Shown: positions 11,391 to 38,986, counted from the first letter of the stretch. The stretch: 64,000 bases of DNA from an uncultured Pseudomonadota bacterium (GCA_963749075.1 CAVVLJ010000016.1:512001-576000), one strand, 5' to 3'. A program made the numbers and translations. The notes: generated from the letters alone by a model not told the origin.

Positions 11391-13799
11391 TCAGCCGGCA
11401 TGATCCTCGTCCTTCGTGGCAAGCAGCGCACCGAGCGCGCCGATACTCATCGGCAGCGATGCGGTATGCAGGCCGAGCGGCGCCAGCGCATCGTTGACCG
11501 CACTCGCAACCGCCGCCGGTGCGCCGAGATAGCCCGCCTCGCCCGAGCCCTTCTGCCCGAAGGTGGTGAGCGGGGAAGGGGTGGCGTGGTCGACGATGGC
11601 GATGTCGGGCACCTCGTGCGAGGTGGGAATGAGATAGTCCATGAACGAGCCATTCAGGAGCTGGCCGTTGCCGTCGTACTCGAAGCGCTCGTAGAGCGCA
11701 GCGCCGATGCCGTGCGCGATGCCGCCGCAGGTCATGCCGTGGACGATGTCGGGATTGATCATCACGCCGCAGTCGTGGCCGACGAAATATCTCTTGAGCT
11801 TGGTCTGGCCGGTGATGCGGTCGACCTCGGCATAGACGAGGTGCGCCTCGAAGGCGTAGCAGGGATACATCTGCACGCGCCCGTCCGGCCCCGGCAAGCC
11901 GCCGCCGCCCGGCACCTGCCAGACCGAGAGCGCCTGCAGCCCCGGCTCGGCGCCGGGCGGCAGCGCGTGGAAGCGGCGATGCGCGATGTCGACGAGCTGG
12001 CTCCAGGCGAGCTTGCGCGCGGCATCGCCGCGGGCGCTCACGTCACCGTCGGCATAGAGGCAGGCCTCGGGTGCCAGGCCGAGATTGTGCGCGGCGATGG
12101 CGACGAGCTGCGTTTTCAGCTTGCGCGCGGCCTCCGCCGCGGCACCGCCCAGCATGATCGCCATGCGGCTGCCGACCGGGCTGTTGCTGGGGAGTGCAGC
12201 GAGGGAGTCGGCATGGACCACGCGGATGCTCTCCGGATCGCGCTCGAGGATCTCGCCGACCACGGTCGCGACCAGCGTCTCGTGGCCCTGGCCGGAGGAT
12301 GACGTCGCCATCGCGGCCACCACCGCTCCGGTCAGGTCGATCTTCACCTGACAGGATTCCATCCAGGTGGTGGTCTGGTTCTTGGGGTTGAGAAGCGGCT
12401 CGAAGGCGGCATTGCCGCCGCTCGGCTCGAGACAGCAGGAAAGACCGATGCCGGCAAGCCGGCCGGCCGTGCGCGCGGCGTCCCTCTCGCGGACGAGCGC
12501 CGGCCAACCGGCGGCGGCGAGCAGCTTCTCCAGCACTGCATGGTAATCGCCGCTGTCGTAGGTGCTGCCGCTCGGGATCCTGTAGGGGAACTCCTCCTTG
12601 CGGATGAAATTGCGGCGGCGCAGCTCGACGCGGTCCAAGCCGAGCCGGCGCGCCACGAGGTCCATGCCCGTCTCGATGGCGAAGTTGGTCGGCGACTGGC
12701 CGAAGCCGCGCACCGCCTCCTGCGGCGTCTTGTTGGTGCTGACGGAGATCGGCTCGTATTCCACGCTTGCGATGCGATAGGGCCCGACAATGGCGCCGAT
12801 GGGCTTGCCGAGCTGGAGCGGCGCGCGGCCGGCGTAGGCGCCCACGTCGTCGAGCGCCCGCATCCTCATGGCGCGCACGATGCCGTCGCCGTCGAAGGCC
12901 ATCTCTATGTCGAAGATGCGGTCGGGTCCGTGCGCGTCGCCGCCGCGCATGTTGTCGAGGCGGTCCTCCAGGAGGCGCACGGGCCGGCCGAGCTTGCGCG
13001 CGAGATAGCCCGCGAGGATGGCGTGCTTGAGCCCGCGCTTGACGCCGTAGCTGCCGCCCACGTCGACGTCGAAATGAACGCGCACGGCGCTTCCCGGCAG
13101 GCGCAGATGGCGGGCCAGGTGATCGGGGAATTTCGGCATCTGGATGGAGGCCCAGACGTCGAGGAGCTGCTGCGCCGGGCTCCAGCGCGCGAGCACCCCG
13201 AAGGTCTCGATCGGCACGGTGGCGCTGCGGTGCCAGCGCGCGCGATAGGCGATCCTGTGCGCCGCCGCGGCGAAGTCGTCCTCGACCGGGCCCCAGACGA
13301 ACTTGCGCCGGTAGAAGAGGTTGCTGCCGTGATCGGGATGGACGGGCGGCGAGGTGTCGAGCAGCGCCGCCTCGGGGTCGACGACGTGGGGCAGCGGCTC
13401 GTAGTCGACCTCGACCATCTCGGCCGCATCCTCGGCGAGCGCGCGGCTCGCAGCCACGACGGCCGCCACCCATTCGCCGACGTAGCGCGCGGAGCCGCGC
13501 GCGAGCGGATAGCGGCGCACATTGGGAAGGTCGATGCCGCTGAAGATCGCTTCGGTCGAGCGGGCGAGCTCGTCGCCGGTGAGCACGGCCGCGACGCCGG
13601 CAAGGCGCAGTGCCGGCGAGGCATCGATCGAGAGGATGCGCGCGGCAGGGTAGGGGCTTGCCACCAGCGCCACGTGCAAGGTGCCGGGAAGGGCGATGTC
13701 GGCGACGAAGCGGCCGGCGCCCGCGACGAAGCGGCGATCCTCCTTCGCCCGCCGCTTGCGGCCGATATAGCGGAAGGCGCCTGGGGCTTCAGCGCTCAA
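11391..13799 (-). CDS. Xanthine dehydrogenase family molybdopterin-binding large subunit (CoxL/CutL-like)
   Basis: [37 protein letters not shown]. Confidence 0.9.
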
Positions 13800-14299
13800 T
13801 GGCAGCCTCCCGCGGCTCGTTGGCGCCGCGCAAACGCTCGGCCGCAAGGGCGATCGCCTCGACGATCTGCTTGTAGCCGGTGCAGCGGCAGAGATTGCCG
13901 CCGATCGCCTCCCGGATCTCCTCTTCGCTCGGAGCGCCGTTTCGCGCAAGCAGCGCGTGCGCCGCGATCAGCATGCCGGGCGTGCAATAGCCGCACTGCA
14001 AGGCATGGGTTTCGCAGAACGAGTTCCTGCAGCACGGAGAGCCCCTCCGCGTCGGGTGCCAGGCCCTCCACGGTGACGACGGCGCTGCCGTCGAGCTGGG
14101 CCGCGAAGAGGAGGCAGGCGCGCACCGGCTCGCCGTCGAGCAGCACGGAGCAGGCGCCGCAGACGCCGTGCTCGCAGCCGACATGCGTGCCGGTGAGTGC
14201 CAACGTCTCGCGCAGGAAATCGACCAGGGTGAGCCGCGCCGCCACGCGCGCGCGCTGCAGCTTGCCGTTCACGTTCAGCGCGATGTCATGCTCCGACAC
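13789..14299 (-). CDS. (2Fe-2S) small subunit (CoxS-like), +1 frameshift at about 14024
   Basis: [10 protein letters not shown]...C in one frame; QCGYCTPG...GNLCRCTGY in the next. Joined by removing one T in GAGTTC (14021-14026). Confidence 0.9.
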
Positions 14300-14303
14300 C
14301 GGA

Positions 14304-15188
14304 TCAGCTCCTCTCCGCGCGCGCTTCGGCGCGCGCTTCGGCGAGTGCCCTCGCGACCAGCGCCGCCGCCATGCGCCGACGGTGGGCGGCACTCGCGTGG
14401 AGATCGTCCGTCGCCTCGATGGTCTCGCGCGCGAGGCGCGCGGCCTCGGCGATCGCCGCGTCCTCGAGCCGCGTCCCGAGCAGCATGGCCTCGACCGCGG
14501 CAAGCCGCACCGGCGTGGCGCCGGTGCCGCCGACCGCGACGGCGAGGCTTCGGCAGACGCCGCCGCCGTCGAGCCCAAGCTCGACCGCCGCGGCCGCCAG
14601 CGCGAAGTCGCTCCGCCGGATGCTGGTCTCCTGGAAGCCCGTGCCGCGGGCGCCGCCGCCCTCGGGCAGAGGAAAGCGCACCGCGGTCAGGCACTCGTCG
14701 GGCTCGAGGGCCGTGACCAGCGGGCCTGCGAAGAAGCGGGCGGCCGGGATGGTGCGTGCGGCTGCTGCCGACCGCACCTCGATCTCGGCATCGAGTGCGA
14801 GTGTCGCGAGCCCGATCTCGGCCGCGGGATCGCCGTGTGCCAAGCTTCCGCCGACGGTGCCGCGGTTGCGCGTCTGAACATGGCCCACGAAGCGAAGCGC
14901 CTTGGCGAGGAGCGGCAGGCGCCGGCGCACCGTGGCGTCGGCCAGCGCGCGCGCCTGGCGCGTGCAGGCGCGGATGGCGACGAAGCCGGCCGCTTCCTCG
15001 ATTCCCGCGAGCTCGGGGATGCGGTTGATGTCGATGAGAAGTGCGGGCCGTGCCAAGCGCATTGCCAGAAGCGGCACCAGCGTCTGGCCGCCGGCGATGA
15101 TCTTGGCGTCGTCCTTGGCTGCCGCCAGCAGGCCGCAAGCCTCGGCGAGAGTGTCGGGGCGCCGGTAATCGAAATCGATCGCCTTCAT
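14304..15188 (-). CDS. FAD-binding medium subunit (CoxM-like)
   Basis: IAGGQTLVPLL, RNRGTVGGS. Confidence 0.9.
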   Translation of the reverse strand: MKAIDFDYRRPDTLAEACGLLAAAKDDAKIIAGGQTLVPLLAMRLARPALLIDINRIPELAGIEEAAGFVAIRACTRQARALADATVRRRLPLLAKALRFVGHVQTRNRGTVGGSLAHGDPAAEIGLATLALDAEIEVRSAAAARTIPAARFFAGPLVTALEPDECLTAVRFPLPEGGGARGTGFQETSIRRSDFALAAAAVELGLDGGGVCRSLAVAVGGTGATPVRLAAVEAMLLGTRLEDAAIAEAARLARETIEATDDLHASAAHRRRMAAALVARALAEARAEARAERS

Positions 15189-23940: not shown

Positions 23941-25185
23941 TTATTTCCAGCCCTTCATCGGCCATTCGAGCTTGGCGGTCGCCCACTTCTGCGGCCAGAC
24001 CGCCTTGTATTCGCTGCCTTGCAGCTGGATGAGATAGGTCGCCGCGAGGGTGTTCTGGCCGCTCGTGTCGAACTTGACGCCGCGGTAGCCGATCATGAGC
24101 TGCCCGGGCTTGAGATCGGTCGCCGCGAGGGCCTTCTGGATCTTATCGGGCGCCGTCGAGCCGGCGCGGTTGATGGCGTCCGCCAAGACGAGGAAGCCCT
24201 GCATCCAGCGCGCGCTGGTGTCGTCCATCTCGCGGCCGGTCTTCGCCTTGTACATCTCGTTGATGCGGTAGCTGGCGCTGCCGGGCTTGCCGACCGACCA
24301 GGCGCTGCGGTTCATGACGCCTTGCACGATGCTGCCGACCGCGGGCACGAAGGACGGATCGGAGAAGCCGGCATCGTCGCCGATGATCATTGGCGGCAGG
24401 TAGCCGAGCTCCTTCATCGTCTTCATGTAGAGGATGGCGTCCGAGGTGTAGCTCACGAAGATCACCACGTCGGGGTTCTTCTCCTTGAGCTGCAGGACCT
24501 GCGCGGATACGTCGGCGCCGTTGGCGTTGTACGGTATCTGAGCCGCCACGTTGAGGCCGACCCGCTTCGCCGCCTCGAGAATGCTGCCGGCGACGGAGGT
24601 GCCGTAGTCGGTGTTCTCGTTGACCACCGCGATGCTGTCGATCTTCCTCCCCTCATGCTTGAGCTCGCTCAGGAACTCGGTATAGGCCTTGGCGAAGTCG
24701 CTGGCGATCGGCCCCGTGCGGAAGACCCACTTGAAGCCGCGCTGGGTGATGTTGAGCGCCACCGAATCGGCGACCAGGAACGGAATGCCGTAGCGCTCGG
24801 AGGCCGCCGTCGCGGTCAGCGCCACCGACGAGTGATAGGCGCCGAGCATCGCCACCACATGCTCCTGGGTGATCAGGCGGACGGTCTCGCTCTGGCCGAC
24901 CACCGGATTGCCCTGGTGGTCGACGCTGATGAGCTCGATCTTGGCGCCGCCGAGCGCGGGCAGCCCGGCCGCGGGTCCGAGCGGGATGGTTGCGAGCTCC
25001 GGATGCGCCTCGTTGACGATCGCGGCGCCGACCTCGACGGCGTCCTTGGCGGCCTTGCCGGCCGCGGCGGCATTGCCGGTGAGCGGGTAGATGACGCCGA
25101 TCTTGACCGCATCCGCGGCATGCGCAGGTGCGGCGAGCGCTGCTGCGGCAAATGCCGCGGCCACGATGCGAGCTCTCATCCTCAT
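23941..25185 (-). CDS. Branched-chain amino acid-type ABC substrate-binding protein
   Basis: Signal peptide; VKIGVIYPLTG; GAYHSSV; ENTDYG. Confidence 0.9.
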   Translation of the reverse strand: MRMRARIVAAAFAAAALAAPAHAADAVKIGVIYPLTGNAAAAGKAAKDAVEVGAAIVNEAHPELATIPLGPAAGLPALGGAKIELISVDHQGNPVVGQSETVRLITQEHVVAMLGAYHSSVALTATAASERYGIPFLVADSVALNITQRGFKWVFRTGPIASDFAKAYTEFLSELKHEGRKIDSIAVVNENTDYGTSVAGSILEAAKRVGLNVAAQIPYNANGADVSAQVLQLKEKNPDVVIFVSYTSDAILYMKTMKELGYLPPMIIGDDAGFSDPSFVPAVGSIVQGVMNRSAWSVGKPGSASYRINEMYKAKTGREMDDTSARWMQGFLVLADAINRAGSTAPDKIQKALAATDLKPGQLMIGYRGVKFDTSGQNTLAATYLIQLQGSEYKAVWPQKWATAKLEWPMKGWK

Positions 25186-25336
25186 GCGATCCTCCCTGTC
25201 GTCCGGCTTTGTGCGGGTTATGGCCTCCGAGGCCTGCCTTGCGGCCTTGCCGGATCGCGCGAGCTTAACGGGATTCGGCCTCCCCGGCCATAGCGCAGCC
25301 GGAGCGGAGCCGAGCGCAGCGGGAGCTCGACCCGCC

Positions 25337-28105
25337 TCAGCCGCTGTTGCGCAATCCCGCGGCGAGTCCGTTGATGGTGAGCCGGATGCCTTCCAAGACC
25401 CGCTCGTCGCCATCGCCGGCGCGGTGGCGCTTCAGGAGCTCGATCTGCACGTGGTTCAAGGGATCGAGGTAGGGAAAGCGGTTGCGGATGGAGCGTGCCA
25501 GGAGCGGATTGCGCTCGAGGAGCGTCTTTTGCTCCATGACGTCCAAGAGGCCATCGACCGCGTCCTGCCACTCGGCGCGCAGCCGCGGAAAGACCGCCTC
25601 GCTGAGCGCCGCGTCGCCGACGAGCTCCGCATAGCGCGAGGCGATCGCGATGTCGCTCTTGGCCAGCACCATGTCCATGTTGGAGAGGAGGCTCTGGAAG
25701 AACGGCCACTCGCGATACATGGCCCGCAGCATGGCGAGGCCGTCGTGCGGACGGGCGGCGCACCAGGCCTTCACCGCGGCGCCGAAGCCGTACCAGCCCG
25801 GCAGCATGAGCCGGCACTGGGCCCAGCCGAAGACCCAGGGGATCGCCCTCAGGTCCTCGATGCGCGTCGATTTCCGCCGCGAGGCGGGCCGGCTGCCGAT
25901 ATGGAGGTTGGCGATCTCGCCGACGACGGTCGTCTCCCAGAAGTAGCGCTCGAAGCCGGGCGTCTCGTAGACCAGGCCGCGATAGCTCCTGTAGGCGTGG
26001 GCCGAGAGCTCCTCCATCGCGGCGAGATAGGCCTCGCGGGGGGCGGCTTCGCGAGGCTGCAGCAGTGTCGCCTCGAGGGTCGCGGCGGCGAGTATCTCGA
26101 GATTGCGCCGGCCCACTTCGGGGTTGCCGTATTTCGCGGCGATCACCTCGCCCTGCTCGGTGATGCGGATGGCGCCCTCGACGGCACCGCCCGGCTGCGC
26201 GAGGATCGCCTGGTAGCTCGGGCCGCCGCCGCGCCCGACCGAGCCGCCGCGGCCGTGGAAGAGACGCAGCCTCACGCCGCGGCGCCGGAACGCCTCGATC
26301 AACGCGATCTCCGCCTTGTAGAGCTCCCAGCCGGAGGTGAGGAAGCCGCCGTCCTTGTTGCTGTCGGAGTAGCCGAGCATCACCTCCTGAGCGTTTCCGC
26401 GGCTGCCGAGGAGGCGCCGGTATGCGGGGAGTGCCAAGAGCTCGTCCATCAGCCGGGCGCAGTTGCGCAAATCATCGATGGTCTCGAAGAGCGGCACGAT
26501 GTTCACGTCGAGCTCGCCCGCGTGGGGCCTGAGGAGACCGGTCTCCTTGAGCAGCAGCGCCACCTCGAGCACGTCGGAAACGCTGTCGGCCTTGGAGATG
26601 ACGCAATTGGGCACCGCCGCCTTGCCGTATTGGCGCAGCGCCTCGGCGGCGGCGCGGAAGATCGCCAGCTCCGAGGCGGTCTCCGCCGAATAGGCGAGGA
26701 AGGGCGAGGCGAGGGGGCGAGGCGTCTCGAGCTCTTCGAGGAGGAGGGCCGTGCGCCCTGCCTCGGCGAGCTTGCCATAGGCCGTGCCCGGCCGCGTGCT
26801 CTCGAAGAGCTCGCCCACCGTACGCTCGTGCACGTCCGAATTCTGCCTCAGATCGATGCCCGCCAAGTGGAATCCGAAGACGTTGACCGCGCGGCGCAAG
26901 CTGCGCAGCCGGCCGCGCGCCAGCGCCGCCGATCCGTTGGCGGCAAGCGAGCGGCCGATGACGTCGAGGTCGGCGCGCAATTCGCCGGCCTCGCCATAGG
27001 GCGGCGCCTCGCCCACCGCATGGCGTGCCACCTCGAGCTGGTCGAGCGTGCGTGCGGTCGCGGCAAGCCGCGCATAGAGGCCGGCGATGGCGCGCCGGTA
27101 GGGTTCCTCGCGGCGGTGTGCCGAGGTATCGGGCGAGCGCGCGGCCAAGGCCTCGAGCTCGCCGGATACCTCGACAAGGCGCCCGTCGAGCGAAAGCTCG
27201 CCGCCCAGGAGGTGCAGCTCCTCGAGATAGAAGCTCAAGGCGCGCCCGCTCTGGAGACGCAGCGCCTGCTTGAGCGCCCCGGCCGTGACGAAGGGATTAC
27301 CGTCCCGGTCGCCGCCGATCCAGCTTCCCATGCGGAGGAAGGAGGGCAGCTCCATGCCGGCGCACGCCGGCTCGGCGGCGGCGAGCTGGTCCTCCAGTGC
27401 CGCATAGAAGCGCGGCAGCTCGCTCAAGAAGGTCTGGTCGTAATGGGAGAGGGCGTTCGCCACCTCGTCGGCGACGGCGAGCTCGCTGCGGCGGAGGATG
27501 CTGGTCTGCCAGAGCGTGAGCACGGCGCGGCGCAACGCCTCCTCGACCGCCGCTTCCTCCTCCGGCGTGAGCGCTCCGCGGTCGCGCGCCTCGAGCAGCC
27601 GCGCCACCTCCATCTCGCGCTCGATGGTGCTCTTGCGCCGCACCTCGGTCGGGTGGGCGGTGAGGACGGGGCTGACCAGGGCGTCTCTGAAAAACGCCGC
27701 GAGCCGGTCGGGTGGAATCGCCGCTTCGCGGGCGCGGGCGAGCGCGTGGGCGATGCTGCCTTCGCGCGGCGCCGAGGCGAGGAGCGCGTGGGCGCGCGTG
27801 CGGCGGATGTGATGGCGGTCCTCGGCGATGTTGGCCAGGTGCGAGAAGTAGCTGAAGGCGCGGATGATCCGGATGGTCTCGCCGGGCGGCAGGCTGTTCA
27901 GCACCAGGGCAAGCTCGTGGCGAGCCGTCTCATCCTCGTCGCGGCGGAAGCGCACCGAGGTCCGGCGGATGCGCTCGACGGTCGCGAAGACCGCCTCGCC
28001 CTCCTGCTCGCGCACCGTGTCGCCGAGGATGCGCCCGAGCAGGCGGATGTCGTCGCGCAGCGGCAGGTCCTTGTCGGGGACCTCGTGCGGACTGAGCGCC
28101 GTCAT
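25337..28105 (-). CDS. ppc: Phosphoenolpyruvate carboxylase
   Basis: [49 protein letters not shown], terminal RNSG. Confidence 0.97.
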
Positions 28106-28332
28106 GACTCGCACGCGTCCGCCGCGGCCGCGCGGCATGCGCGGCACGGCGCTGCGCTTAAGCGGTTGACGGCCTTGCGAAGAACGATGAGCATGACCCC
28201 CTCGTCGACGAGTGTTGCATGGGGTCGCCGGAGCGGCCAACCGAATATTGGCAAAGCGCCTCGGGAGTGCCCAATGCTCCTCGTCCGCAGCCGTTCGGCG
28301 CGCGCCGCGCTCGACAAGGGGAGTGATGCCCG

Positions 28333-29091
28333 ATGCCGCGTCTTAGCGATTTCACCACGCTCACCTTCGACTGCTACGGCACGCTCATCGATTGGGAGCG
28401 CGGCATCTTGGCCGAGCTCAGGCCCTGGGCGGCGCGGCACGGCTTGGCGGTCGGCGACGACGCCTTGCTCGAGGCGTTCGGCGCCGCCGAATCCCGCGCC
28501 GAGGCGGAGACCCCGGGAAAGCTCTACCCCGCGATCCTCGCGGACGTGCTGCAGGTGCTTGCCCGGCAGTGGTCCGTGCCGACGGATGACGCGGAGGCGG
28601 CGGCCTTCGGCGGCTCGGTCGGGCGCTGGCCGGCCTTTGCCGACAGTCCGGCGGCGCTGCAATATTTGAAGCGCCACTACAAGCTCGTCATCGTCTCGAA
28701 CGTGGACCGCGCCTCCTTCGCCGAGAGCCGCGAGCGGCTCGGCGTCGCCTTCGACCGCGTCATCACGGCGGAGGACGTGGGCTCCTACAAGCCGGACCTG
28801 CGCAATTTCGAGTACGCGCTCAATGACATCAAGGAGGCCCTCGGCGTCGAGCCGCACGAGGTGCTGCACACGGCGCAGAGCATCTACCACGACATCGTGC
28901 CGGCGAAATCGCTCGGCCTCGCCACCATGTGGATCAACCGGCGCAAGGGCCGCGGCGGCTGGGGTGCCACGCCGGCGCCCGGCGGCGGCGGCCGCGCGGC
29001 AAAACCGGATTTCGAGGCCGCCAGCCTTGCGGATTTCGTGGTACTCCACGAGTTGCGCGAGGCCACGCCGCCGCGCGGGAGCGGCCCGTGA
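28333..29091 (+). CDS. HAD-superfamily hydrolase (haloacid dehalogenase type II-like)
   Basis: [31 protein letters not shown]. Confidence 0.88.
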
Positions 29092-29763: not shown

Positions 29764-30696
29764 GTGCAATTGGCGGCGGCGACGCGGGGCTTCGGCGTGC
29801 CCGCGGGTTCCTTCTCGGCCGAGGTCGCGGCGGTCTATCGCGGCGCCTGTCTCATGGCGCTCGACGACGGCGCGCTCGTGACGCTCGCCGTCCGTGAGCT
29901 CGGCAGCCTGCCGCACGGCTTTTCCCTCAAGCGCGCGCGCGGCTTCGACTTCAGGGGCAGGCTCCTTCGCGGCATGCCCGCGAGTGCCAGAGGCGGCGTG
30001 CTGCGCTTTGCCGGCTCGGCGCTTGCCGTCGACCTCCGCCCGGCGCGCCCATGGCGGAGCAACCTTGCCGGCCTCGGCTTGACGCTCGACCATGCGGCGC
30101 AACAGGGTGCCTGGCAGGCCGCCCACGACGAGCTCGCGCGCGACGGACGAGCCGCGGACTTCGCCGTGGCTGCCGGGCAGCAGATCGCGGAGCTCTCGGC
30201 CACGGCCCGCGCGCTCGACGCCGGACGCACCATGGCGGCCGCCGGCCGCCTCATCGGCCTGGGCAAGGGCTCGACGCCCGCGGGCGACGATTTGCTCGTG
30301 GGCTTCCTTGCCGGCCTGTGGGCGAGCGCCGCTGCGGAACCCGCGCGCAGCACCTTCCTCTCGAGGCTCCACGGTCCGCTCGGCGAGGCGGCGGCGCGCA
30401 CCAGCCGCTTGAGCCGCCTCTATCTCATGGCGGCGGCGGCGGGCGAGGTGTCGGAGCGCCTGACGCGCTTAGCTGCGGCCGTGGCCGCGGGCGCCGCCGA
30501 GCCGCTCGCGCGCGCTCGCACGCGCCGGGCGCTCGCCGTCGGCCACAGCTCGGGCGCCTCGGGCGTGCTCGGCTTCCTCGCGGCGAGTGCCGCCTTCTCG
30601 CCCGCCGCTATGCTGCGTCTCGGCCTGGCACCTTACGTCGCCGCTGCCTCCTCGCGCATGCCGACCACCAGGCAGATTAGGCCGAGCAGCACGTAG
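29764..30696 (+). CDS. DUF2877 (YlbF/AllH-like) protein
   Basis: LIGLGKGSTPAGDDLLVG, RTSRLS, VGHSSG motifs. Confidence 0.8.
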   Translation: MQLAAATRGFGVPAGSFSAEVAAVYRGACLMALDDGALVTLAVRELGSLPHGFSLKRARGFDFRGRLLRGMPASARGGVLRFAGSALAVDLRPARPWRSNLAGLGLTLDHAAQQGAWQAAHDELARDGRAADFAVAAGQQIAELSATARALDAGRTMAAAGRLIGLGKGSTPAGDDLLVGFLAGLWASAAAEPARSTFLSRLHGPLGEAAARTSRLSRLYLMAAAAGEVSERLTRLAAAVAAGAAEPLARARTRRALAVGHSSGASGVLGFLAASAAFSPAAMLRLGLAPYVAAASSRMPTTRQIRPSST

Positions 30697-32177
30697 CCGA
30701 GCGCCACCATCGGCGAGGCGCCCACCGCGAGCTGCAGGCCGTGGATGAAGCCGAAGTACGAGAGCACGGCGCCGGCAAAGGCGTAGATCGTCGCCTTCTT
30801 GAACTGGCGGTCGATGATGAAGGCGGCAATGGCGCCGAGGATGAGGCCAGCGAGCACGGCACCGCCGCCGAGCAGCTGCATCCCGCGGTAGACGACGCCA
30901 GAGCCCATCAGTTTGTCGAGGCCGACCTTGTCCGCCGAGGTGCCGGCGGCATTGAGCGCGCCGTCGATCTGGATCTGCCCCCAGGCGGCGATGTTGGGGA
31001 TGATGGCGAGGACCACGGCCGGGGCGTGCTTGGACGGGCTCGCCTGGAAGGCCTGGGCACCGATCACGAGACCGATATAGAGAAGGATCGGCAGGATGGC
31101 GACGAGGGGCACCACGGCGAGGAGGAAGGCCGTGAGCCCGAGGAAGCAGACGAGTGCTATGACGACGCCCGTCGCGAGCGAATAGCCGATGCGGCCGCCG
31201 ACCGCCTTCCAGCCCGGATGGCCGATATAGACCGCCGGCGGGAAGGGGCTGCCGAGGATGGAGCCCACCACGGCGCCCACTCCGTCGGCAAGGAGGATGT
31301 GGCGCAGGTTGTAGCTGTCCCCGGCGGCAGAGGCACTCTCGACGTTGTTCATGCCCTCGGTGAAGTTATAGATGCCGAGCGGGATGGCGGTGACGAGGAG
31401 CGGCCCGATGTCGGAGAGCCCGGAGAACACATCGCCGCTCGGCCACGGCAGATAGAGGCCGAATTGCCCGAGTGCTGCGTGGACCTCGGCTGCCTTGACC
31501 ACGTCGCTCCAGCCGAAGGCCGAGACCACCCAGGCGATCACCGTGCCGACGATGACGGCGGCGAGCCCGCCCGGAATGCCGAAGGGCAGGCGCACGTTGG
31601 CGGTCCAGCTGATCAGCACGATGCCGAGCGAGACGAAGGAGATCCACGGCAGCTCCCACATCTGGAAGGCGGGCCGCATCGAGATGAAGGCGATCGAGAT
31701 GCCGGCGAGCGTTCCCAGCATCGCCGCGCGCGGCGTGAAGCGGCGCACGGCGGGTCCCACGAAGGCGCCGAGCAGCACGATGATGCCGATGATGAAGGCC
31801 CAGGCGAGGCCGGCGCGCCAGGCGAGGAGCGCATCGTGGGTCTTGAGGTAGACCGGCAGCATGATCACGAAGACGACGATGAACATGTGCGGCACGCTCG
31901 GCCCGTAGGGCATGGCCGCCACGTCGCTACGGCGCTCCGCCCGGGCGAGCCGGTAGGCGAGATAGGCGTAATAGAGATTGCCGATCGGCAGCGCTATGCC
32001 GAGGGCGGGCAGGATGCGCCCGAACACCACGTCCGCCGGCATCTTGACCACGCCGAGGGTCAACCCGGTCAGCACGATGACGTTGAGCACCACGTTGGTG
32101 AAGAGGCCGAAGAATGCATTCCAGTCGCCCGGTACCCACCAGCGCACCGGAGCGTGAGAGCCCTGTTCAGTGGTCAT
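30633..32177 (-). CDS. NCS2/AzgA-like permease
   Basis: GDWNAFFGL, AMPYGPSVPH, NVESASAAGD, VYIGHPGWKAVGGR; many TM segments. Confidence 0.85.
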   Translation of the reverse strand: MTTEQGSHAPVRWWVPGDWNAFFGLFTNVVLNVIVLTGLTLGVVKMPADVVFGRILPALGIALPIGNLYYAYLAYRLARAERRSDVAAMPYGPSVPHMFIVVFVIMLPVYLKTHDALLAWRAGLAWAFIIGIIVLLGAFVGPAVRRFTPRAAMLGTLAGISIAFISMRPAFQMWELPWISFVSLGIVLISWTANVRLPFGIPGGLAAVIVGTVIAWVVSAFGWSDVVKAAEVHAALGQFGLYLPWPSGDVFSGLSDIGPLLVTAIPLGIYNFTEGMNNVESASAAGDSYNLRHILLADGVGAVVGSILGSPFPPAVYIGHPGWKAVGGRIGYSLATGVVIALVCFLGLTAFLLAVVPLVAILPILLYIGLVIGAQAFQASPSKHAPAVVLAIIPNIAAWGQIQIDGALNAAGTSADKVGLDKLMGSGVVYRGMQLLGGGAVLAGLILGAIAAFIIDRQFKKATIYAFAGAVLSYFGFIHGLQLAVGASPMVALGYVLLGLICLVVGMREEAAAT

Positions 32178-32260
32178 TGTCGTCCCCCTGTCATGGAGTT
32201 GACGCTGGCTCGGGCGGCGCCCGGCCTATGCGCTTTTGCTTACGGGCTCCTCCACTACTT

Positions 32261-32959
32261 CTACTTCTTCTTTGTCGATTTCTTGGCCGGCTTGGCTTTT
32301 GCCAAGGCCGGCAGCAGATTCTCCGAGCGGCCGACCCAGCCGAAGATGCCGCCCTGCGCCTTGATCATCTTGAGGGCGTAGTCCTGGAACTCGGGAAAGT
32401 AGGAGGCGACGCAGTCCTCCAGCACGAGGGCGTCGTAGCCGCGGTCGTTCGCCTCGCGCACGGTCGTGTTGACGCAGACCTCGGTGGTGACACCGCAGAC
32501 GATGAGCTGCGTGATGCCGCGGCTCTTCAGCATGGCGTCGAGGTCGGTCGCGTAGAAGGCGCCCTTGCCCGGCTTGTCGACGACCGGCTCGTCGGCTAGA
32601 GGCTTGAGCTCGTCGATGATGTCGTGGCCGTACTCGCCGCGCACCAGGATGCGGCCCATGGGGCCCTTGTCGCCGATGCCGCTCTTGAGCTTGCCGCGCG
32701 CCTTCTTGGCGGGCGGCAGGTCGGAGAGGTCGGGGCGGTGGCCTTCGCGCGTATGGATGACGAGGAGGCCTGCCTTGCGCGCCGCATCCAGCACGCGCTT
32801 GGTGGGCGCGATCGCCTTCCTCAAGAGCGACACGTCGTTGCCCAGCGCCTCGCCGAAGCCGCCCGGATCGACGAAGTCGCGCTGCATGTCGATGATGACG
32901 AGCGCTGAGCTGGCCGGATCGAAGCTAAACGCGTAGGGCTCCGCGCGGACCTTTGTCAT
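32261..32959 (-). CDS. Isochorismatase-like cysteine hydrolase, triuret hydrolase (TrtA)-type signature
   Basis: Asp-Lys-Cys triad (IDMQ, DKPGK, TTEVC). [19 protein letters not shown] and QGGIF match the TrtA rather than BiuH residue pattern as I recall it. Confidence 0.75.
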
Positions 32960-33001
32960 GGTGATCTCCCGTCGCTGCGGGCATTGCCTCCCCCTTGGTC
33001 C

Positions 33002-34828
33002 TCATTGCTGCTGGCTTTGGGCCGCGAGAAAGCGGCGCCAGCTTACGAGCTCGGTGATGTCCTCTGCCTCCGCCGCGGCATAGGCCTCGCAGAGGAAGCC
33101 CTTGACCCGCTCGCCGTCCTCGAGCTCGAGCGTGCCGATGCCGAGCGGGCCGGCAATGCCGGCGACGAAGCTGCCGAAGGATGCCGCCGGCAGCTCCCAG
33201 ACCTCGACCTCGATGGCGCGGCCGGCGGCACTCCTCACCAGGCCGGGCCGCGCCGGCGGGCCGCCGGGCAGCGCATAGAGGCGGTAGTGCCGCGCCGTCG
33301 AGCAGCGGCGCACGAGCCGGCCGCCGCGCTCGACGAGCTGGTGGTTGAGCGGCAGGCCCGACATATGGGCGCCGCACACCGCGACGCGCACCAGGCCGTT
33401 GGGATGGCTGTGGCCCGGTGCTGCCGCGCGCGCCGGCGGCAAGGGAAGGCCGGTCGCACCCAGGGTAAGGCCCTCGGCGCGGTGGAGCTCGGCGCCCAAC
33501 GTCGCGAGCGCCTCGTCGCACCAGGCCGGTGCCACGAGTGTTGCGCCGAAGGGCAGCCCGCCTGCCTCGAAGCCGGCCGGGATGGCCAAGGCCGAGAGGT
33601 CGAGCAGGTTCACGAAGTTCGTGTAATAGCCGAGGTTGTTGTTGAGCCGCACCGGATCCGCCAGCATCTCGGCGATCCCGTAGCTGCGCCCCGCGGTCGG
33701 CGTCACGAGGAGATGGCAGCGCTCCCACAGCGGCTCCGCCAGGCGCCGCAGCTCCTTCAAGCGGTAATAGCCGAGGTAGGCGTCGGCGGCGAGCGGCTTG
33801 GCGCCGCCCGCGATGATCTGCCGCGTCACCGGGTGAAGCGCCTCAGGCCGCTTGTCGACGAAATCGCGGATGGCGGCATAGCGCTCCGCGACCCAGGGCC
33901 CGCCGTAGAGCAGGTGCGCCGCCTCGAGGAAAGGCGAGATGTCGACCTCGAGGAGGCGGCCGCCGAGGCGCTCGATGAGGCGAAGCAGCTCGGCGAAGCG
34001 CTCGGCGCCCGCGACATTGCCGAAGAACTCGAGCTGCTCCGGCCGCGGGACGCCGAAGCGGCAGCCGGCGATGCGGCCGGGGATGGCCGGACGCCGGGCG
34101 GGCTCGGGCTGCTTCGAGAAGGGATCGGCGGCATCGAAGCCCCTGGCAATCTCGAGCACGTCGTGCGCATCCTCGACCGTGAGCGCCAGGATCGAGACGC
34201 AGTCGAGCGAGCGGCAGGCCGGCACCACGCCGCGCGAGCTCAACAAGCCGCGGGTCGGCTTGAGGCCCACGACGTTGTTGAAGGCGGCCGGCACGCGGCC
34301 GGAGCCGGCCGTGTCGGTGCCGAGGGCGAAGCTCACCAAGCCGGCCGCCACGGCGACCGCCGAGCCCGAGCTCGAGCCGCCCGCGATGGTCTCTCGGTCG
34401 AAGGCGTTCGCCGGCGCGCCATAGGGCGAGCGCGTGCCGCTGAGCCCGGTCGCGAACTGGTCGAGGTTGCACTTGCCGATGGCGATGGCGCCCGCGGCCT
34501 CGAGCAGCACCACGGCACGGGCGCTCTCCCGCGGGCGATAGGCGAAGTCGGGGCAGGCGGCCGTGGTGGGATGACCCGCAAGGTCGATGTTGTCCTTGAT
34601 CGCGAAGGGAATGCCGTAGAGGGGGCGGCCCACGGCTCCGTCCTTGGCCAGCGCCTCCGCGCGCGCCACCAGCTCGCCGCGCGGCAAGAGGTGGATCCAC
34701 ACCTTGTCGTCGCCGCGCGCGGCGATGCGCTGCAGCACGCCGTCCACCACCTCGACCGGTGTCAGGGCAGCCGCACGCAAGCGCGTGCCAAGCGTCGCCA
34801 GATCGAGACTGTCGCTCGCCTCCAGCAC
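33002..34828 (-). CDS. atzF: Allophanate hydrolase
   Basis: AIKDNID, GGSSSGS, GTDTAGSGRVPA amidase signature; C-terminal VAVCGAHMSGLPLN domain. Confidence 0.92.
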   Translation of the reverse strand: MLEASDSLDLATLGTRLRAAALTPVEVVDGVLQRIAARGDDKVWIHLLPRGELVARAEALAKDGAVGRPLYGIPFAIKDNIDLAGHPTTAACPDFAYRPRESARAVVLLEAAGAIAIGKCNLDQFATGLSGTRSPYGAPANAFDRETIAGGSSSGSAVAVAAGLVSFALGTDTAGSGRVPAAFNNVVGLKPTRGLLSSRGVVPACRSLDCVSILALTVEDAHDVLEIARGFDAADPFSKQPEPARRPAIPGRIAGCRFGVPRPEQLEFFGNVAGAERFAELLRLIERLGGRLLEVDISPFLEAAHLLYGGPWVAERYAAIRDFVDKRPEALHPVTRQIIAGGAKPLAADAYLGYYRLKELRRLAEPLWERCHLLVTPTAGRSYGIAEMLADPVRLNNNLGYYTNFVNLLDLSALAIPAGFEAGGLPFGATLVAPAWCDEALATLGAELHRAEGLTLGATGLPLPPARAAAPGHSHPNGLVRVAVCGAHMSGLPLNHQLVERGGRLVRRCSTARHYRLYALPGGPPARPGLVRSAAGRAIEVEVWELPAASFGSFVAGIAGPLGIGTLELEDGERVKGFLCEAYAAAEAEDITELVSWRRFLAAQSQQQ

Positions 34829-35037
34829 CGAAGCCCCCGGTCCCCTGGTCAGGCGGGCCCGCATCCGACGGGGTGGGGAGGCGCCACCGAAGGAGCGCAG
34901 GACAAAGCCCGTGCGAATTCGTTAGAATTACGATAACCGATCCGGATTGCCCCGGACAAGCCGCCTCTCTGGTCTCGGCGGACAAAGGAGAAAGCGCTCG
35001 GCGATCGCAGTCGCGACGAACGAGGAGGGCCGGGCGA

Positions 35038-36622
35038 ATGGCGAGCGTCACCAAGATCATCGCGAATTTCTACCGCGACTCCGTGTCGCTCATGCAGCTC
35101 TCGGCGCGCGTAGCCAAGTTGCCGGGCGTGCGCGAGGCCTCGGCCATCATGGCGTCCGAGAGCAATCTGGCGCTCCTCCGCGGGGCCGGCCTGCTCGAAG
35201 GCGAGGTGAGCGCCGGGCCGAACGACCTCTTGATCGCCCTCCTCGGCGAGAGCGGCGAGGCGCTCGAGGCGGCCGCCGCCGAGGCGGAGACGCTGCTGAC
35301 CGAGAGTGCCGCACCTGCGCGGGGCTCAGGCGTGGCGGCGGAGCCCTTGCGCAGCCTCGAGATGGCGCTCCAGGCCGAGCCCTCGGCCAATCTGGCGCTC
35401 ATCTCGACCCCCGGCGAATACGCCGCCGCCGAGGCGGAGAAGGCGCTCAACCTCGGCCTCAACGTCATGCTCTTCAGCGACAACGTGGCGCTCGCCGACG
35501 AGGTCATGCTGAAGGAGAAAGCGGCCGCCGCCGGTCTTCTCGTCATGGGCCCCGATTGCGGCACGGCACTCATCGGCGGCATCCCGCTCGGCTTCGCCAA
35601 CGTGGTGCGGAGGGGCGAGATCGGCGTGGTCGCCGCCTCTGGCACCGGCCTCCAGCAGGTGAGCTGCCTCGTCGACCGCCTGGGCAAGGGCATCTCCCAC
35701 GCCATCGGCACGGGCGGGCACGATCTCCGCGCCGAGGTCGGCGGCATCACCATGAGCCGCGGCATCGAGGCGCTCGCCGCCGATCCGGCGACCAAGGTGA
35801 TCGTGCTCATCTCGAAGCCGCCCGCAGCCGCGGTCGCCGGGCGCGTGCTCGAGATCGCGCGCAGCACCGGCAAACCCGTCGTCGTCAATTTCCTCGGCGC
35901 CGACCCGGCTGCGACCGGCGGCGGCGGCCTCTTCGCCGCCGAGACGCTCGAGGACGCCGCGCGCGCCGCGGTCGCCCTTGCCGACGGACGCACGCCCGAC
36001 GGCACGGCCGCCGCATCGCCCGCGAGCGTGGCCCGCCCCGCTTTCGCAAGCACCCAGCGCTATATCCGCGGCCTCTATAGCGGCGGCACCTTCTGCTACG
36101 AGGCGTCGCTCCTGCTCTCCGAGGAGCTGGCGCCGGTCTTCACCAACACCCCGGTCGGCTCGGCGCGGGCACTCGAGGACGTTCTGGACGAGCCGCGCCC
36201 ACACGGTCATCGATCTGGGCGACGACCTCTTCACGCGCGGCCGGCCGCACCCCATGATCGACCACCGGCTGCGCAACGAGCGCATCCTCAAGGAGGCGGC
36301 CGATCCCGAGACGGCCGTCATCCTCCTCGACGTGGTGCTCGGCTACGGCTCCCATGCCGATCCGGCGGGCGAGATGGCACCGGTGGTGCGCGAGGCGCTG
36401 AGAGAGGCGGGGCGGGCCGGGCGGGAGCTCGCCGTGGTTGGCTTCGTCTGCGGCACCGCGGGCGACCCGCAAGGCCTCGCGCGCCAGGAGGAGGCGCTGA
36501 GAAGCGCAGGCATGCGCCTTTTCGAGAGCAACGCCCAGGCGGTGCGGCAGGCGGCCCGGATGGTGGGCGGGGAGCAGCCGCTCTCAGCACCGGCGCTCGC
36601 CAGCGCGAGGCCGCTGCCGTGA
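35038..36622 (+). CDS. fdrA: FdrA (AllF-like) acyl-CoA synthetase-fold protein, +1 frameshift at about 36182
   Basis: YRDSVSLM, MLFSDNV, MGPDCGT, ASGTGLQ, GLYSGGT; DLGDD.FTRGRPHPMID lies in the shifted frame. Joined by removing one T in GACGTTC (36178-36184). Confidence 0.88.
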
Positions 36623-38043
36623 GCCTTCTCGCCGGCAAGCTCCGCGTCGTCAACTTGGGCCTCGCCTCCTTTGCCGACGCCATAGCGGCGGCGGGCGGCG
36701 AGGTGGTGCAGCTCGCTTGGGTGCCGCCCGCAGGCGGCGACAGCGCGATAGGCCGGCAGCTCGCCCGCCTGGTCAACCACCCCCTGGTCGAGGCCGCCAA
36801 CCGCAAGGCGTATGCCGCCTATCTCGCAGCCCAGCCGGTGCTCGAGGGCATCGCCCCGGCGCGCGCGCTCGTCCCCGGCATGGGCCGGCGCATGATCCTC
36901 CACGCCGGCCCGCCGATCGCCTGGCAGCGCATGTGCGGTCCGATGCGGGGCGCCGTCATCGGCGCCATCCTCTTCGAGGGTTGGGCCGAGGATGCGGCGG
37001 CGGCCGAGCGGCTTGCCGCGAGCGGGAAAATCGCCTTCGCACCCTGCCATCACCATGGCGCCGTCGGCCCCATGGCCGGGATCATCAGCCCCTCCATGCC
37101 GGTCTGGGCCGTGCGCGAGCGCACGACCGGCCGCCTCGCCTTCAGCAATCTCAACGAGGGTCTCGGCAAGGCGCTGCGCTTCGGCGCCAACGGGCCGGAG
37201 GTCATCCAGCGCTTGAGATGGATGGCGAAGAGCCTCGCGCGCTCGCTCGCGGCCGGGCTTGCCGAGCTCGGGCCGCTCGAGCTCAAGCCGCTCATGGCCC
37301 AGGCGCTCCACATGGGCGACGAGGTGCACAACCGCAATTCGGCCGCCACGGCGCTCTTCTTGAAGCGCCTGGTCCCCGCCCTCCTCGGCGCGCGCACCGG
37401 CCGCAGCACAGTCGAGGAGGCCGTCGCCTTCATCGCCGGCAACGACCACTTCTTCCTCAACCTCTCCATGGCGGCCTGCAAGGCGATGCTGGATGCGGCG
37501 TGCTGTGTTCCGGCGAGCAGCATGGTGACGGCCATGGCGCGGAACGGCGTCGAGTTCGGCATCCAGCTGAGCGGGCTCGGCGGGCGCTGGCTCACCGCAC
37601 CCGCACCGCTCGTCGACGGCCTCTTCTTCCCCGGCTATACGATCGCCGACGCGGCCCCGGACTTGGGCGACAGCGCGATTGCCGAGACGGCCGGGTTAGG
37701 CGGCTTCGCCATGGCGGCGGCACCGGCGATCGTCCGCTTCGTCGGCGGCCGCTCCGCGGACGCCATCGCCAACACCCTCGCCATGGGCCACATCACGCTC
37801 GGGCGCAACGAGGCCCTGACGCTCCCCGCCCTCGACTTCGCGGGCACGCCCGCCGGCATCGACGCGCGCAAGGTGGTCGATACGGGCCTCCTCCCCATCA
37901 TCAATACCGGCATCGCTCACCGCGAGGCGGGGATCGGCCAGATCGGCGCCGGCATCACGCGTGCGCCGCTCGCCTGCTTTACGCAAGCCGTGGCGGCGCT
38001 TGCCGGGCAGCTCGATGAGGGGAGGGCGGGCGATGCCGGCTGA
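36619..38043 (+). CDS. DUF1116 (YlbE/AllG-like) protein
   Basis: GTGA overlap with fdrA; ILHAGPP, MGDEVHNRN, PDLGDSAIAE, INTGIAH. Confidence 0.88.
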   Translation: MSLLAGKLRVVNLGLASFADAIAAAGGEVVQLAWVPPAGGDSAIGRQLARLVNHPLVEAANRKAYAAYLAAQPVLEGIAPARALVPGMGRRMILHAGPPIAWQRMCGPMRGAVIGAILFEGWAEDAAAAERLAASGKIAFAPCHHHGAVGPMAGIISPSMPVWAVRERTTGRLAFSNLNEGLGKALRFGANGPEVIQRLRWMAKSLARSLAAGLAELGPLELKPLMAQALHMGDEVHNRNSAATALFLKRLVPALLGARTGRSTVEEAVAFIAGNDHFFLNLSMAACKAMLDAACCVPASSMVTAMARNGVEFGIQLSGLGGRWLTAPAPLVDGLFFPGYTIADAAPDLGDSAIAETAGLGGFAMAAAPAIVRFVGGRSADAIANTLAMGHITLGRNEALTLPALDFAGTPAGIDARKVVDTGLLPIINTGIAHREAGIGQIGAGITRAPLACFTQAVAALAGQLDEGRAGDAG

Positions 38044-38986
38044 GGTACCGCTCGCGGTCGTGGCGATCGGCGGCAACTCGCTCATCCGCGACAGGGAGCA
38101 CCTCTCGATCCCCGACCAGTACGACGAGGTGACGGTCACGGCGCGCAGCATCGCCGAGATGATCGCCCAGGGCTGGAACGTCGTCGTGACCCACGGCAAC
38201 GGGCCGCAGATGGGCTTCATCCTGCGCCGCTCCGAGCTCTCGATCCGCGAGGTGGCACCCGTGCCGATGGATTATGCGGGCGCCGACATCCAGGGCGCCG
38301 TCGGCTATATGTTCGTCAAGGCGCTACGCAACGAGTTCCGCCGCCGCGGCATCGCGCGCGAGCCGGTCGCGGTGGTGACCGAGACGCTGGTCGATCTCGC
38401 GGACCCCGCCTTCGCGGAGCCGAGCAAGCCGATAGGCTCGCACATGGCGGAGGCCGAGGCCAAGACGCTCGCGGCGGCACAGGGCTGGGTCGTCAAGGAG
38501 GACGCGGGCCGCGGCTGGCGCCGCGTCGTGGCCTCGCCCGCACCCAAGCGCATCGTCGATCTCGAGGTCATCGCCCATCTTGCCGGCAGCGGCTATGTGG
38601 TGATCGCCTGCGGCGGCGGCGGCGTCCCCGTGGCCGAGGACGCGTCAGGCGATCTCGGCGGCGTCGAGGCGGTGATCGACAAGGACCTCGCCTCGAGCCT
38701 GCTCGCGCGCGCGCTCGGCGCCGAGCTCCTCCTCGTCTCGACCGCGGTCGACAAGGTGGCGCTCGACTTCGGCAAGCCGGGCATGCGCTGGCTCGACCGC
38801 CTCACGCTCAGCGAGGCGAAGCGCTACTACGCCGAGGAGCAGTTCGACCGCGGCAGCATGGGGCCCAAGATCCAGGCCATCGTCGCCTTCCTCGAGGGCG
38901 GCGGGCGGCGGGGCATCATCACCAGCCCGCACAACATCGCAAAAGCGCTCGCCGGCTCGACCGGCACCCACGTGGTGCCGGGGTGA
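38033..38986 (+). CDS. arcC: Carbamate kinase
   Basis: AIGGNSL, THGNGPQ, GWRRVVASP, GGGGVPV, VEAVIDKD, GSMGPK. Confidence 0.93.
   Translation: MPAEVPLAVVAIGGNSLIRDREHLSIPDQYDEVTVTARSIAEMIAQGWNVVVTHGNGPQMGFILRRSELSIREVAPVPMDYAGADIQGAVGYMFVKALRNEFRRRGIAREPVAVVTETLVDLADPAFAEPSKPIGSHMAEAEAKTLAAAQGWVVKEDAGRGWRRVVASPAPKRIVDLEVIAHLAGSGYVVIACGGGGVPVAEDASGDLGGVEAVIDKDLASSLLARALGAELLLVSTAVDKVALDFGKPGMRWLDRLTLSEAKRYYAEEQFDRGSMGPKIQAIVAFLEGGGRRGIITSPHNIAKALAGSTGTHVVPG

Follow-up and report, generated by a model that had tools for sequence, protein, structure and literature searches.

Triuret and biuret arise as fertiliser impurities and as oxidation products of urate, and to our knowledge the only known route for their breakdown is purely hydrolytic, proceeding through triuret hydrolase (TrtA), biuret hydrolase (BiuH) and allophanate hydrolase (AtzF). 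How might a bacterium that encodes TrtA and AtzF, and no evident BiuH, connect the two? The question is raised by a locus at positions 29764-38986 of a 64,000-nucleotide stretch of DNA from an uncultured Pseudomonadota bacterium (GCA_963749075.1, CAVVLJ010000016.1:512001-576000), hereafter the window, whose coordinates are used throughout and whose G+C content is 70%. The host assembly (G000) comprises 5.49 Mb in 23 contigs and is 96.3% complete and 5.15% contaminated. Domain and profile searches returned the gene content, order and strands that an earlier note on this DNA had described: a plus-strand allH, a minus-strand set transcribed in the order atzF, trtA and permease, and a divergent plus-strand set allF-allG-arcC, with allF, allG and allH belonging to the three-subunit transcarbamoylase AllFGH and arcC to carbamate kinase. 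The locus is best read as a module for the use of triuret, with a phosphorolytic branch standing where biuret hydrolase would be, a single pathway being the most economical account of its genes. AllFGH would phosphorolyse the TrtA product, carboxybiuret, to allophanate and carbamoyl phosphate, from which ArcC would then make ATP; judging from gene content and sequence comparison, we give this proposal a probability of about 0.45.

The cysteine hydrolase on which the argument turns (32261-32959, minus strand) is isochorismatase-like (PF00857, E 1.8e-49) and a predicted triuret hydrolase. It scores 283.5 bits on the BiuH equivalog model NF050097, against a cut-off of 370 and against 376-427 bits for the true BiuH proteins of the surveyed genomes, and its closest solved relatives are the Herbaspirillum TrtA structures 6XIX and 6XJ4 (E 2e-81), which outrank the biuret hydrolases of Rhodococcus and Rhizobium. 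By alignment, D24-K129-C162, the catalytic triad, and the substrate-contacting E72, K132 and Q202, which PMC7948467 gives as common to TrtA and BiuH, are all present. The same source lists six positions at which the consensus sequences of the two enzymes differ, F35, N41, A134, E160, Y187 and I205 in TrtA against Y, Y, S, D, T and V in BiuH, and the window hydrolase, whose 13-site signature is DFFNEKKAECYQI, has the TrtA-type residue at all six, as do five relatives. The alignment can be said to separate the two types because second paralogues in two related genomes, G008 and G009, carry every BiuH-type residue (Y, Y, S, D, T, V). The motifs GGFGEALGN, TTEVC, ASYF and QGGIF, singled out beforehand from the sequence, are present and fall on these discriminating positions. 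The six residues, the sub-cut-off BiuH score and the best structural match uphold the prior call of TrtA over BiuH, and the assignment of the hydrolase to the TrtA type rather than to BiuH is supported at the level of sequence. G010 (L019:2061-2741) adds a third type to these TrtA/BiuH-like hydrolases, with 45% identity, lysine at Q202 and other changes at specificity sites.

The usual pairing of trtA with biuH, a feature of context and not a property of the protein, is missing from this genome. BiuH was not found in the genome as assembled, the next best isochorismatase scoring 43.8 bits on the BiuH model, and genome-wide searches likewise returned no AtzE equivalog (best 304.8 bits against a cut-off of 425.75), no urea carboxylase (best 570 bits against 1304) and no AtzD, the last of these a weak negative because the search matched in no control genome either. 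Therefore, with none of these four enzymes found, AtzF is left without an evident supplier of allophanate. An AllD equivalog was also not found in the genome (best 137.9 bits against 496), and other E. coli allantoin proteins gave only distant matches there, so AllFGH has no evident supplier of oxalurate; within the window, no link to the oxalurate-forming genes allD, allC and allE was seen. The claim that BiuH, AtzE and allantoin genes are missing from the window holds, and extends to the 96.3%-complete genome.

The other enzymes of the locus fall into recognisable families. The atzF product (33002-34864, minus strand) combines Amidase and AH_C domains (PF01425, E 1.4e-82; PF21986, E 2.2e-48), scores 820.7 bits on NF006043 (cut-off 487) and 765.9 bits on TIGR02713 (cut-off 511), and is the sole allophanate hydrolase match above cut-off in the genome. 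All three AllFGH subunit families (FdrA, DUF1116 and DUF2877) are represented at the locus. The ylbF-like allH (DUF2877; 29764-30696, plus strand; PF11392, 78.8 bits, E 6.1e-22) encodes the small subunit, accounts for the genome's single PF11392 match, and scores 324.9 bits on a hidden Markov model (HMM) of cluster-linked AllH; the fdrA-like allF (35038-36622, plus strand) encodes the succinyl-CoA-synthetase-alpha-like subunit and is frame-broken; and the ylbE-like allG (36619-38043, plus strand) is a DUF1116 gene (PF06545, 307.1 bits, E 7.7e-92). The carbamate kinase gene arcC/allK (38033-38986, plus strand) scores 356.3 bits on NF009007 (cut-off 266) and, on TIGR00746, 348.9 bits, slightly below the cut-off of 358.25. 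A Shine-Dalgarno-like GAGGAGGG lies upstream of the allF ATG at 35038, the GTG start of allG overlaps the allF stop (GTGA), and the arcC ATG lies 11 nucleotides within the end of allG. Identity to the E. coli proteins is 50% for AllG (YlbE), 43% for AllF, 38% for AllK and 28% for AllH (YlbF). AllG residues 3-44, encoded at 36619-36760, align to residues 513-554 of E. coli FdrA (elsewhere given as 507/513-554); the first 45 or so residues of AllG thus correspond to a segment that in E. coli forms the C-terminus of AllF, and the point at which AllF ends and AllG begins therefore differs between lineages, a shift that would be expected of proteins forming one complex.

The 514-residue permease (30633-32177, minus strand), whose 3' end overlaps that of the convergent allH by 64 nucleotides, matches no Pfam or NCBIfam family model even at an E-value of 10. 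This includes the NCS2/xanthine-uracil profile PF00860, with whose members only the fold is common. Its nearest Atlas clusters are annotated 'hypothetical protein', and the nearest named cluster is Xan_ur_permease, at 0.89. A Foldseek comparison of its AlphaFold model (predicted local distance difference test, 87.3; predicted template-modelling (TM) score, 0.81) with the PDB returned SVCT1, SLC26Dg, UraA, UapA and AZG1 (E 3e-8 to 2e-6, TM 0.5-0.6), and by this model the protein has the UraA/NCS2-SLC26-type 7+7 fold of elevator carriers for nucleobases and anions. We regard it as a putative triuret (ureide) importer.

In the pathway that we propose, the UraA-fold permease would import triuret, and TrtA would remove one terminal amide to give 1-carboxybiuret and NH3. 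Chemically, 1-carboxybiuret is oxalurate with one NH inserted, an anionic acyl-ureide. AllF-AllG-AllH would cleave its terminal carbamoyl group with phosphate, yielding allophanate and carbamoyl phosphate; ArcC would convert carbamoyl phosphate and ADP to ATP, NH3 and CO2, while AtzF would take allophanate to two NH3 and two CO2, unless urease finished the breakdown after decay. The net yield per triuret would be four NH3 and roughly one ATP, and carboxybiuret would be kept from decaying spontaneously to biuret, which in this genome leads nowhere. Slightly more tentative is the wider proposal that in this clade the FdrA/DUF1116/DUF2877 complex acts as a polyureide phosphorylase, releasing carbamoyl phosphate from 1-carboxybiuret and possibly from allophanate. 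Triuret would then be mineralised with a substrate-level gain of ATP and no need of BiuH and, in some lineages, without allophanate hydrolase or urease as well.

The distribution of these genes in other genomes bears directly on the proposal. One genome per species was scanned, which gave at least 555 relatives; of the 80 loci most similar to that of the window, one from an unpublished genome was omitted, and the other 79 all have the TrtA-type signature. In 62 of them the 13 sites are identical, and in a further 13 the sole difference is A134S, a substitution described as not deleterious (PMC7948467). The permease is the most constant neighbour, lying within 10 kb of trtA in 63 loci, followed by AtzF (25), AllG (23), BiuH (22), AllF (18), ArcC (15) and AllH (10, or 13 with the HMM). 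Over the same distance AllG and BiuH rarely coincide: two of the 79 loci have both, 21 have AllG and no BiuH, and 20 have BiuH and no AllG. AllF and/or AllG is found within 10 kb at 25 loci, here called linked, which come from four phyla (12 Pseudomonadota, 7 Actinomycetota, 5 Chloroflexota and 1 Methylomirabilota). When the survey and the window's relatives are taken together, trtA and allF/G are read in the same direction, with no opposing gene in between, at 18 of 33 loci, typically in the order trtA-perm-allH-allF-allG-arcC, forming apparent single operons. In a Mycobacterium metagenome-assembled genome (MAG), L085, trtA overlaps allF in an operon trtA-allF-allG-arcC.

A genome-wide search for BiuH, which covers 74 of the 79 loci, gave scores above cut-off in 5 of the 25 linked genomes, a sixth having a partial copy, and in 32 of the 49 that are unlinked (Fisher p 4.5e-4), and AllG occurs elsewhere in the genome in 9 of 50 unlinked genomes. 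Among cultured carriers, Halomonas saccharevitans CGMCC 1.6493 combines TrtA with a type-1 AllG, and no BiuH was found in it. AtzF is present in 10 of the 25 linked genomes, with one further split copy, and urease in 21. Because 14 of these genomes have no AtzF and 19 have neither a full nor a partial BiuH, the module frequently occurs with neither of its hydrolytic partners, and in three linked genomes, as assembled, none of BiuH, AtzF and urease was found. In a separate sample of 401 Alphaproteobacteria, AllG was found in 32 genomes (one unpublished) and a TrtA/BiuH-like gene in 44; in 14 genomes a TrtA-like match lies about 2 kb from another paralogue, an arrangement like that of the published pair, and none of the 14 has AllG. 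L085 also encodes, at 13556-14965 on the plus strand, an ArcC fused to the AH_C domain of allophanate hydrolase (PF21986, E 3e-37) in a genome without a full AtzF, a fusion that may hint at the intermediates of the pathway; a short AH_C-like match follows arcC in L089 in a similar way.

Closer to the window, 7 of 10 other genomes of the same family carry a close homologue of the hydrolase. In six family relatives atzF-trtA adjoins allF, with the permease and allG-arcC also seen wherever the contig is long enough. No BiuH was found in five genomes of the window's own genus, and where a true BiuH is present in the family, in G008 (L017:9706-10407) and G009 (L018:9623-10270), which belong to two related genera, it lies beside an ATP-binding cassette transporter, unlinked to the trtA cluster. 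The position of allH is more variable: it is adjacent only in G000 and G008 and absent from this position in the congeners G002-G005, and a single PF11392 gene lies on another contig in G003, G005 and G009.

A tree of 47 AllG sequences, built by a quick search and with modest support, places 17 of 28 TrtA-linked copies, that of the window included, within one group of 20 rows (Shimodaira-Hasegawa-like approximate likelihood ratio, SH-aLRT, 86). E. coli AllG, with which the window AllG does not group, falls in another group together with alphaproteobacterial copies ordered allG-allF near allB- or allC-like genes. As TrtA-linked copies also appear at three other places in the tree, with at least two changes on well-supported branches, the linkage of TrtA with AllG arose more than once.

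Several observations weigh against the phosphorolytic pathway. The inverse relation to BiuH runs along clades in the tree of TrtA. With only two independent pairs on well-supported branches, no significance survives correction for ancestry; given these shared clades and two contrasts, we take the association as real as a pattern, and not as independent of descent. BiuH is also present in 6 of the 25 linked genomes if the partial copy is counted, and the comammox clusters of PMC12625717 carry BiuH together with AllFGHK. Neither BiuH nor AllG was found in nine of the 74 TrtA genomes, and TrtA thus has no strict requirement for one or the other. Conversely, AllFG-ArcC is tied to AtzF even without TrtA, because in G134 (L138, C3:49000-68900) AtzF is divergent from AllF-AllG-ArcC in a genome without TrtA; this locus also has a GntR regulator and a PF00860 xanthine/uracil permease beside AtzF. 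At five Solirubrobacteraceae-type loci (L073, L075, L077, L100 and L104) a DUF1116 gene is the only one of these subunits by trtA, and no AllF or ArcC was found nearby. That gene is deep-branching and divergent from trtA-permease(-atzF), and in L075 a GntR/FCD regulator adjoins it. Finally, allH is unlinked in the congeners, allF is frameshifted in this assembly, and AtzF alone might suffice, since Pseudomonas AtzF has some activity on 50 mM biuret (PMC3944691).

The co-occurrence that the earlier note had proposed to look for is a mixed result, in that linkage of TrtA with AllFG across four phyla and a negative association with BiuH were both found, and independence from shared ancestry was not. 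Its inference that AllFGH fills the missing step fared similarly: these two patterns and the lack of another evident allophanate source are consistent with it, and it falls short of demonstration where the association depends on ancestry, where nine TrtA genomes have neither partner, and where AllFG-ArcC-AtzF occurs without TrtA.

The alternative that survives best, doubtful as we consider it, is that two unrelated ureide pathways lie side by side, AllFGH being a true oxamate transcarbamoylase that works with ArcC on imported oxalurate, and TrtA-AtzF acting on triuret. The genes would be clustered and co-regulated only in that oxalurate and triuret are both rich in nitrogen and both arise in the oxidative breakdown of purine or urate. 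With no BiuH, carboxybiuret would then either be handled by AtzF, through an AtzE-like deamidation and decarboxylation to allophanate, or decay to biuret and be lost. Two pathways are how the one paper reporting such co-location interprets it (PMC12625717), and they suit the 50% and 43% identity of AllG and AllF to the proven E. coli enzyme. The assays of that enzyme used oxamate and carbamoyl phosphate only (PMC11326118) and are thus compatible with either reading. AtzE, itself an amidase-signature enzyme, deamidates 1-carboxybiuret (PMC6219798), and the weak activity of AtzF on biuret (PMC3944691) would also serve such a scheme, as would the G134 locus and the six linked genomes that combine AllFG with BiuH. 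However, this genome has no AllD equivalog or other known source of oxalurate. The single operons trtA-perm-allH-allF-allG-arcC have one permease, and, as counted above, most linked genomes lack AtzF (14 of 25) and BiuH (19 of 25), so that two pathways would there mean a triuret route of one step beside an oxalurate route that is complete. The near-exclusion of BiuH and AllG beside TrtA (both in 2 of 79 loci) is left unexplained if the pathways are independent, and most TrtA-linked AllG stand apart from E. coli AllG in the tree.

The break in allF raises the less probable alternative that the module is decaying in this strain, with no working AllFGH and only permease-TrtA-AtzF functional. An extra T at 36182/36183 shifts the frame: G000 reads GACGTTCTGG where the congeners G003, G004 and G005 read GA(C/T)GTCTGG, in frame. 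On NF004760 the N-terminal part of allF scores 394.2 bits and the C-terminal part 141.2 bits in another frame. As no stop interrupts the wrong frame, one 1094-residue open reading frame (ORF; 34759-38043) runs from the N-terminal part of AllF through about 150 junk residues into AllG. Of the earlier description of an fdrA-ylbE-arcC operon, the genes and strands stand, and the intactness of allF, where the one-base insertion had been overlooked, does not. Decay would fit an insertion that three congeners lack, an allF that is also frame-broken in G009, at another site, and an allH that has moved relative to its position in congeners. On the other side, frame breaks in G000 affect 3 distinct genes in 66 ortholog queries, besides one split isochorismatase gene, and similar breaks occur in other long-contig MAGs of the survey, such as L037, where ArcC and AtzF are each in three pieces. 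Given this break rate and these like cases, which point to indel errors of assembly, the allF frameshift is probably an assembly error rather than the mark of a pseudogene, by about 3:1; moreover, the rest of allF, allG and arcC is free of stops and translational coupling is kept. Other one-base breaks in the assembly, in at least three further genes, lie at G000:C16:918835-918850, G000:C21:719718 and G000:C16:764980; they suggest the kind of indel error usual in long-read MAGs or, failing that, unusual decay of genes. Only three public runs match 5-6% of the words sampled from window positions 35700-36700, and the stretch is contained in none of them. A programmed frameshift was set aside, as the congeners are in frame and no slippery run is visible by eye at the site. 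The function of the module in this strain depends on whether the frameshift is real.

A last alternative is that the whole cluster is of the oxalurate type, a TrtA-like hydrolase making oxalurate from, for example, an oxalurate amide, of which we know no natural source, and AllFGH cleaving it as in E. coli. Operons with TrtA and AllFGH-ArcC and without BiuH or AtzF could be explained in this way, and the eight compounds besides triuret on which TrtA was assayed (PMC7948467, Table 2) include no oxalyl ureide, yet it is very improbable, as the six specificity residues and the substrate contacts are the same in AllFG-linked and BiuH-linked TrtA (62 of 79 identical, 13 with A134S), which are about 65-75% identical to each other, and as AtzF, an allophanate enzyme, lies in the same operon here.

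Returning to the locus and its surroundings, the intergenic region between the divergent atzF and allF (34865-35037), aligned across six relatives, contains a conserved AT-rich element, TTAGAATTACGATA at about 34921-34934. The form TTAGAATTACGATAAC, at 34918-34940, is kept in G003, G004 and G005, and G008 and G009 carry a related form, TTTAGTATACAA; the element may be a shared operator or promoter. The TTTAGTATACAA form resembles a GntR-type operator, and no regulator gene adjoining the element was seen in the window. Genes flanking the locus look unrelated and comprise a HAD hydrolase, a conserved 260-residue ORF, a phosphoenolpyruvate (PEP) carboxylase and a LigB dioxygenase. The PEP carboxylase gene occupies 25337-28240 on the minus strand (PF00311, 1076.6 bits). 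An ORF of 1192 residues at 25091-28669, considered as a urea carboxylase partner for AtzF, was rejected, since it has no Pfam match and its opposite strand encodes the PEP carboxylase; it is a high-GC shadow ORF. A urease alpha subunit is encoded at G000:C16:584481-586181, 8.5 kb past the end of the window and about 38 kb from trtA, and in G047 urease lies 12 kb from trtA.

How new is such an arrangement? A 2025 paper (PMC12625717) describes contigs of comammox Nitrospira and ammonia-oxidising archaea on which allFGHK lies next to trtA/biuH/atzF, a co-location that the earlier note had missed; its view that no characterised pathway has this form stands for phosphorolysis, which we found in no paper. 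A full-text literature search, which did not extend to the supplements of PMC12625717 where allFGHK is treated under 'Supplemental Results', returned no report of a BiuH-less form, of near-exclusion between AllFG and BiuH, of a separate AllG subgroup or of phosphorolysis. If the proposed pathway is true, it would provide a second, energy-conserving route for triuret and biuret and the first alternative substrate for a recently identified three-subunit transcarbamoylase. It would also explain the occurrence of allFGHK without allantoin genes in nitrifiers, Chloroflexota, Actinomycetota and Proteobacteria, and would give a role to a widespread family of membrane proteins that has no name.

The logic of the proposed pathway has precedents, as arginine deiminase, agmatine and oxalurate catabolism all phosphorolyse a carbamoyl compound to carbamoyl phosphate, from which carbamate kinase makes ATP. 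Compared with these routes, the transcarbamoylase here is of the FdrA/DUF1116/DUF2877 type and not of the aspartate or ornithine transcarbamoylase (ATCase/OTCase) fold, and it would draw on a polyureide as donor. E. coli allFGHK (fdrA-ylbE-ylbF-ybcF), which encodes oxamate transcarbamoylase and a catabolic carbamate kinase (PMC11326118), has the same four families and the same translational coupling. The window cluster differs from it in not lying by allECD or allB, in having allH apart from allFG, in an allG that opens with the segment closing AllF in E. coli, and in an AllG that falls in a different tree group. The trtA-biuH-atzF clusters of Herbaspirillum sp. BH-1 and Rhizobium leguminosarum (PMC7948467) share the catalytic and specificity residues and an AtzF in the same operon, whereas here BiuH is missing from locus and genome, AllFGH and a carbamate kinase are attached, and the permease belongs to an unnamed family. 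On the nitrifier contigs of PMC12625717 the same families stand side by side, and the upstream purine and allantoin genes are absent there too; the bacterial clusters among them keep biuH and are read by their authors as two pathways, in contrast to the present case, in which BiuH is missing and AllFG and BiuH are mostly exclusive. A parallel in strategy is AtzEG-AtzH of Pseudomonas sp. ADP (PMC6219798), where an enzymatic step likewise acts on 1-carboxybiuret before it decays, so that the dead end is avoided and the pathway ends at AtzF. That step is hydrolytic, using an amidase and a DUF3225 decarboxylase, whereas the one proposed for this locus, whose genome has no AtzE equivalog, would be phosphorolytic and energy-conserving.

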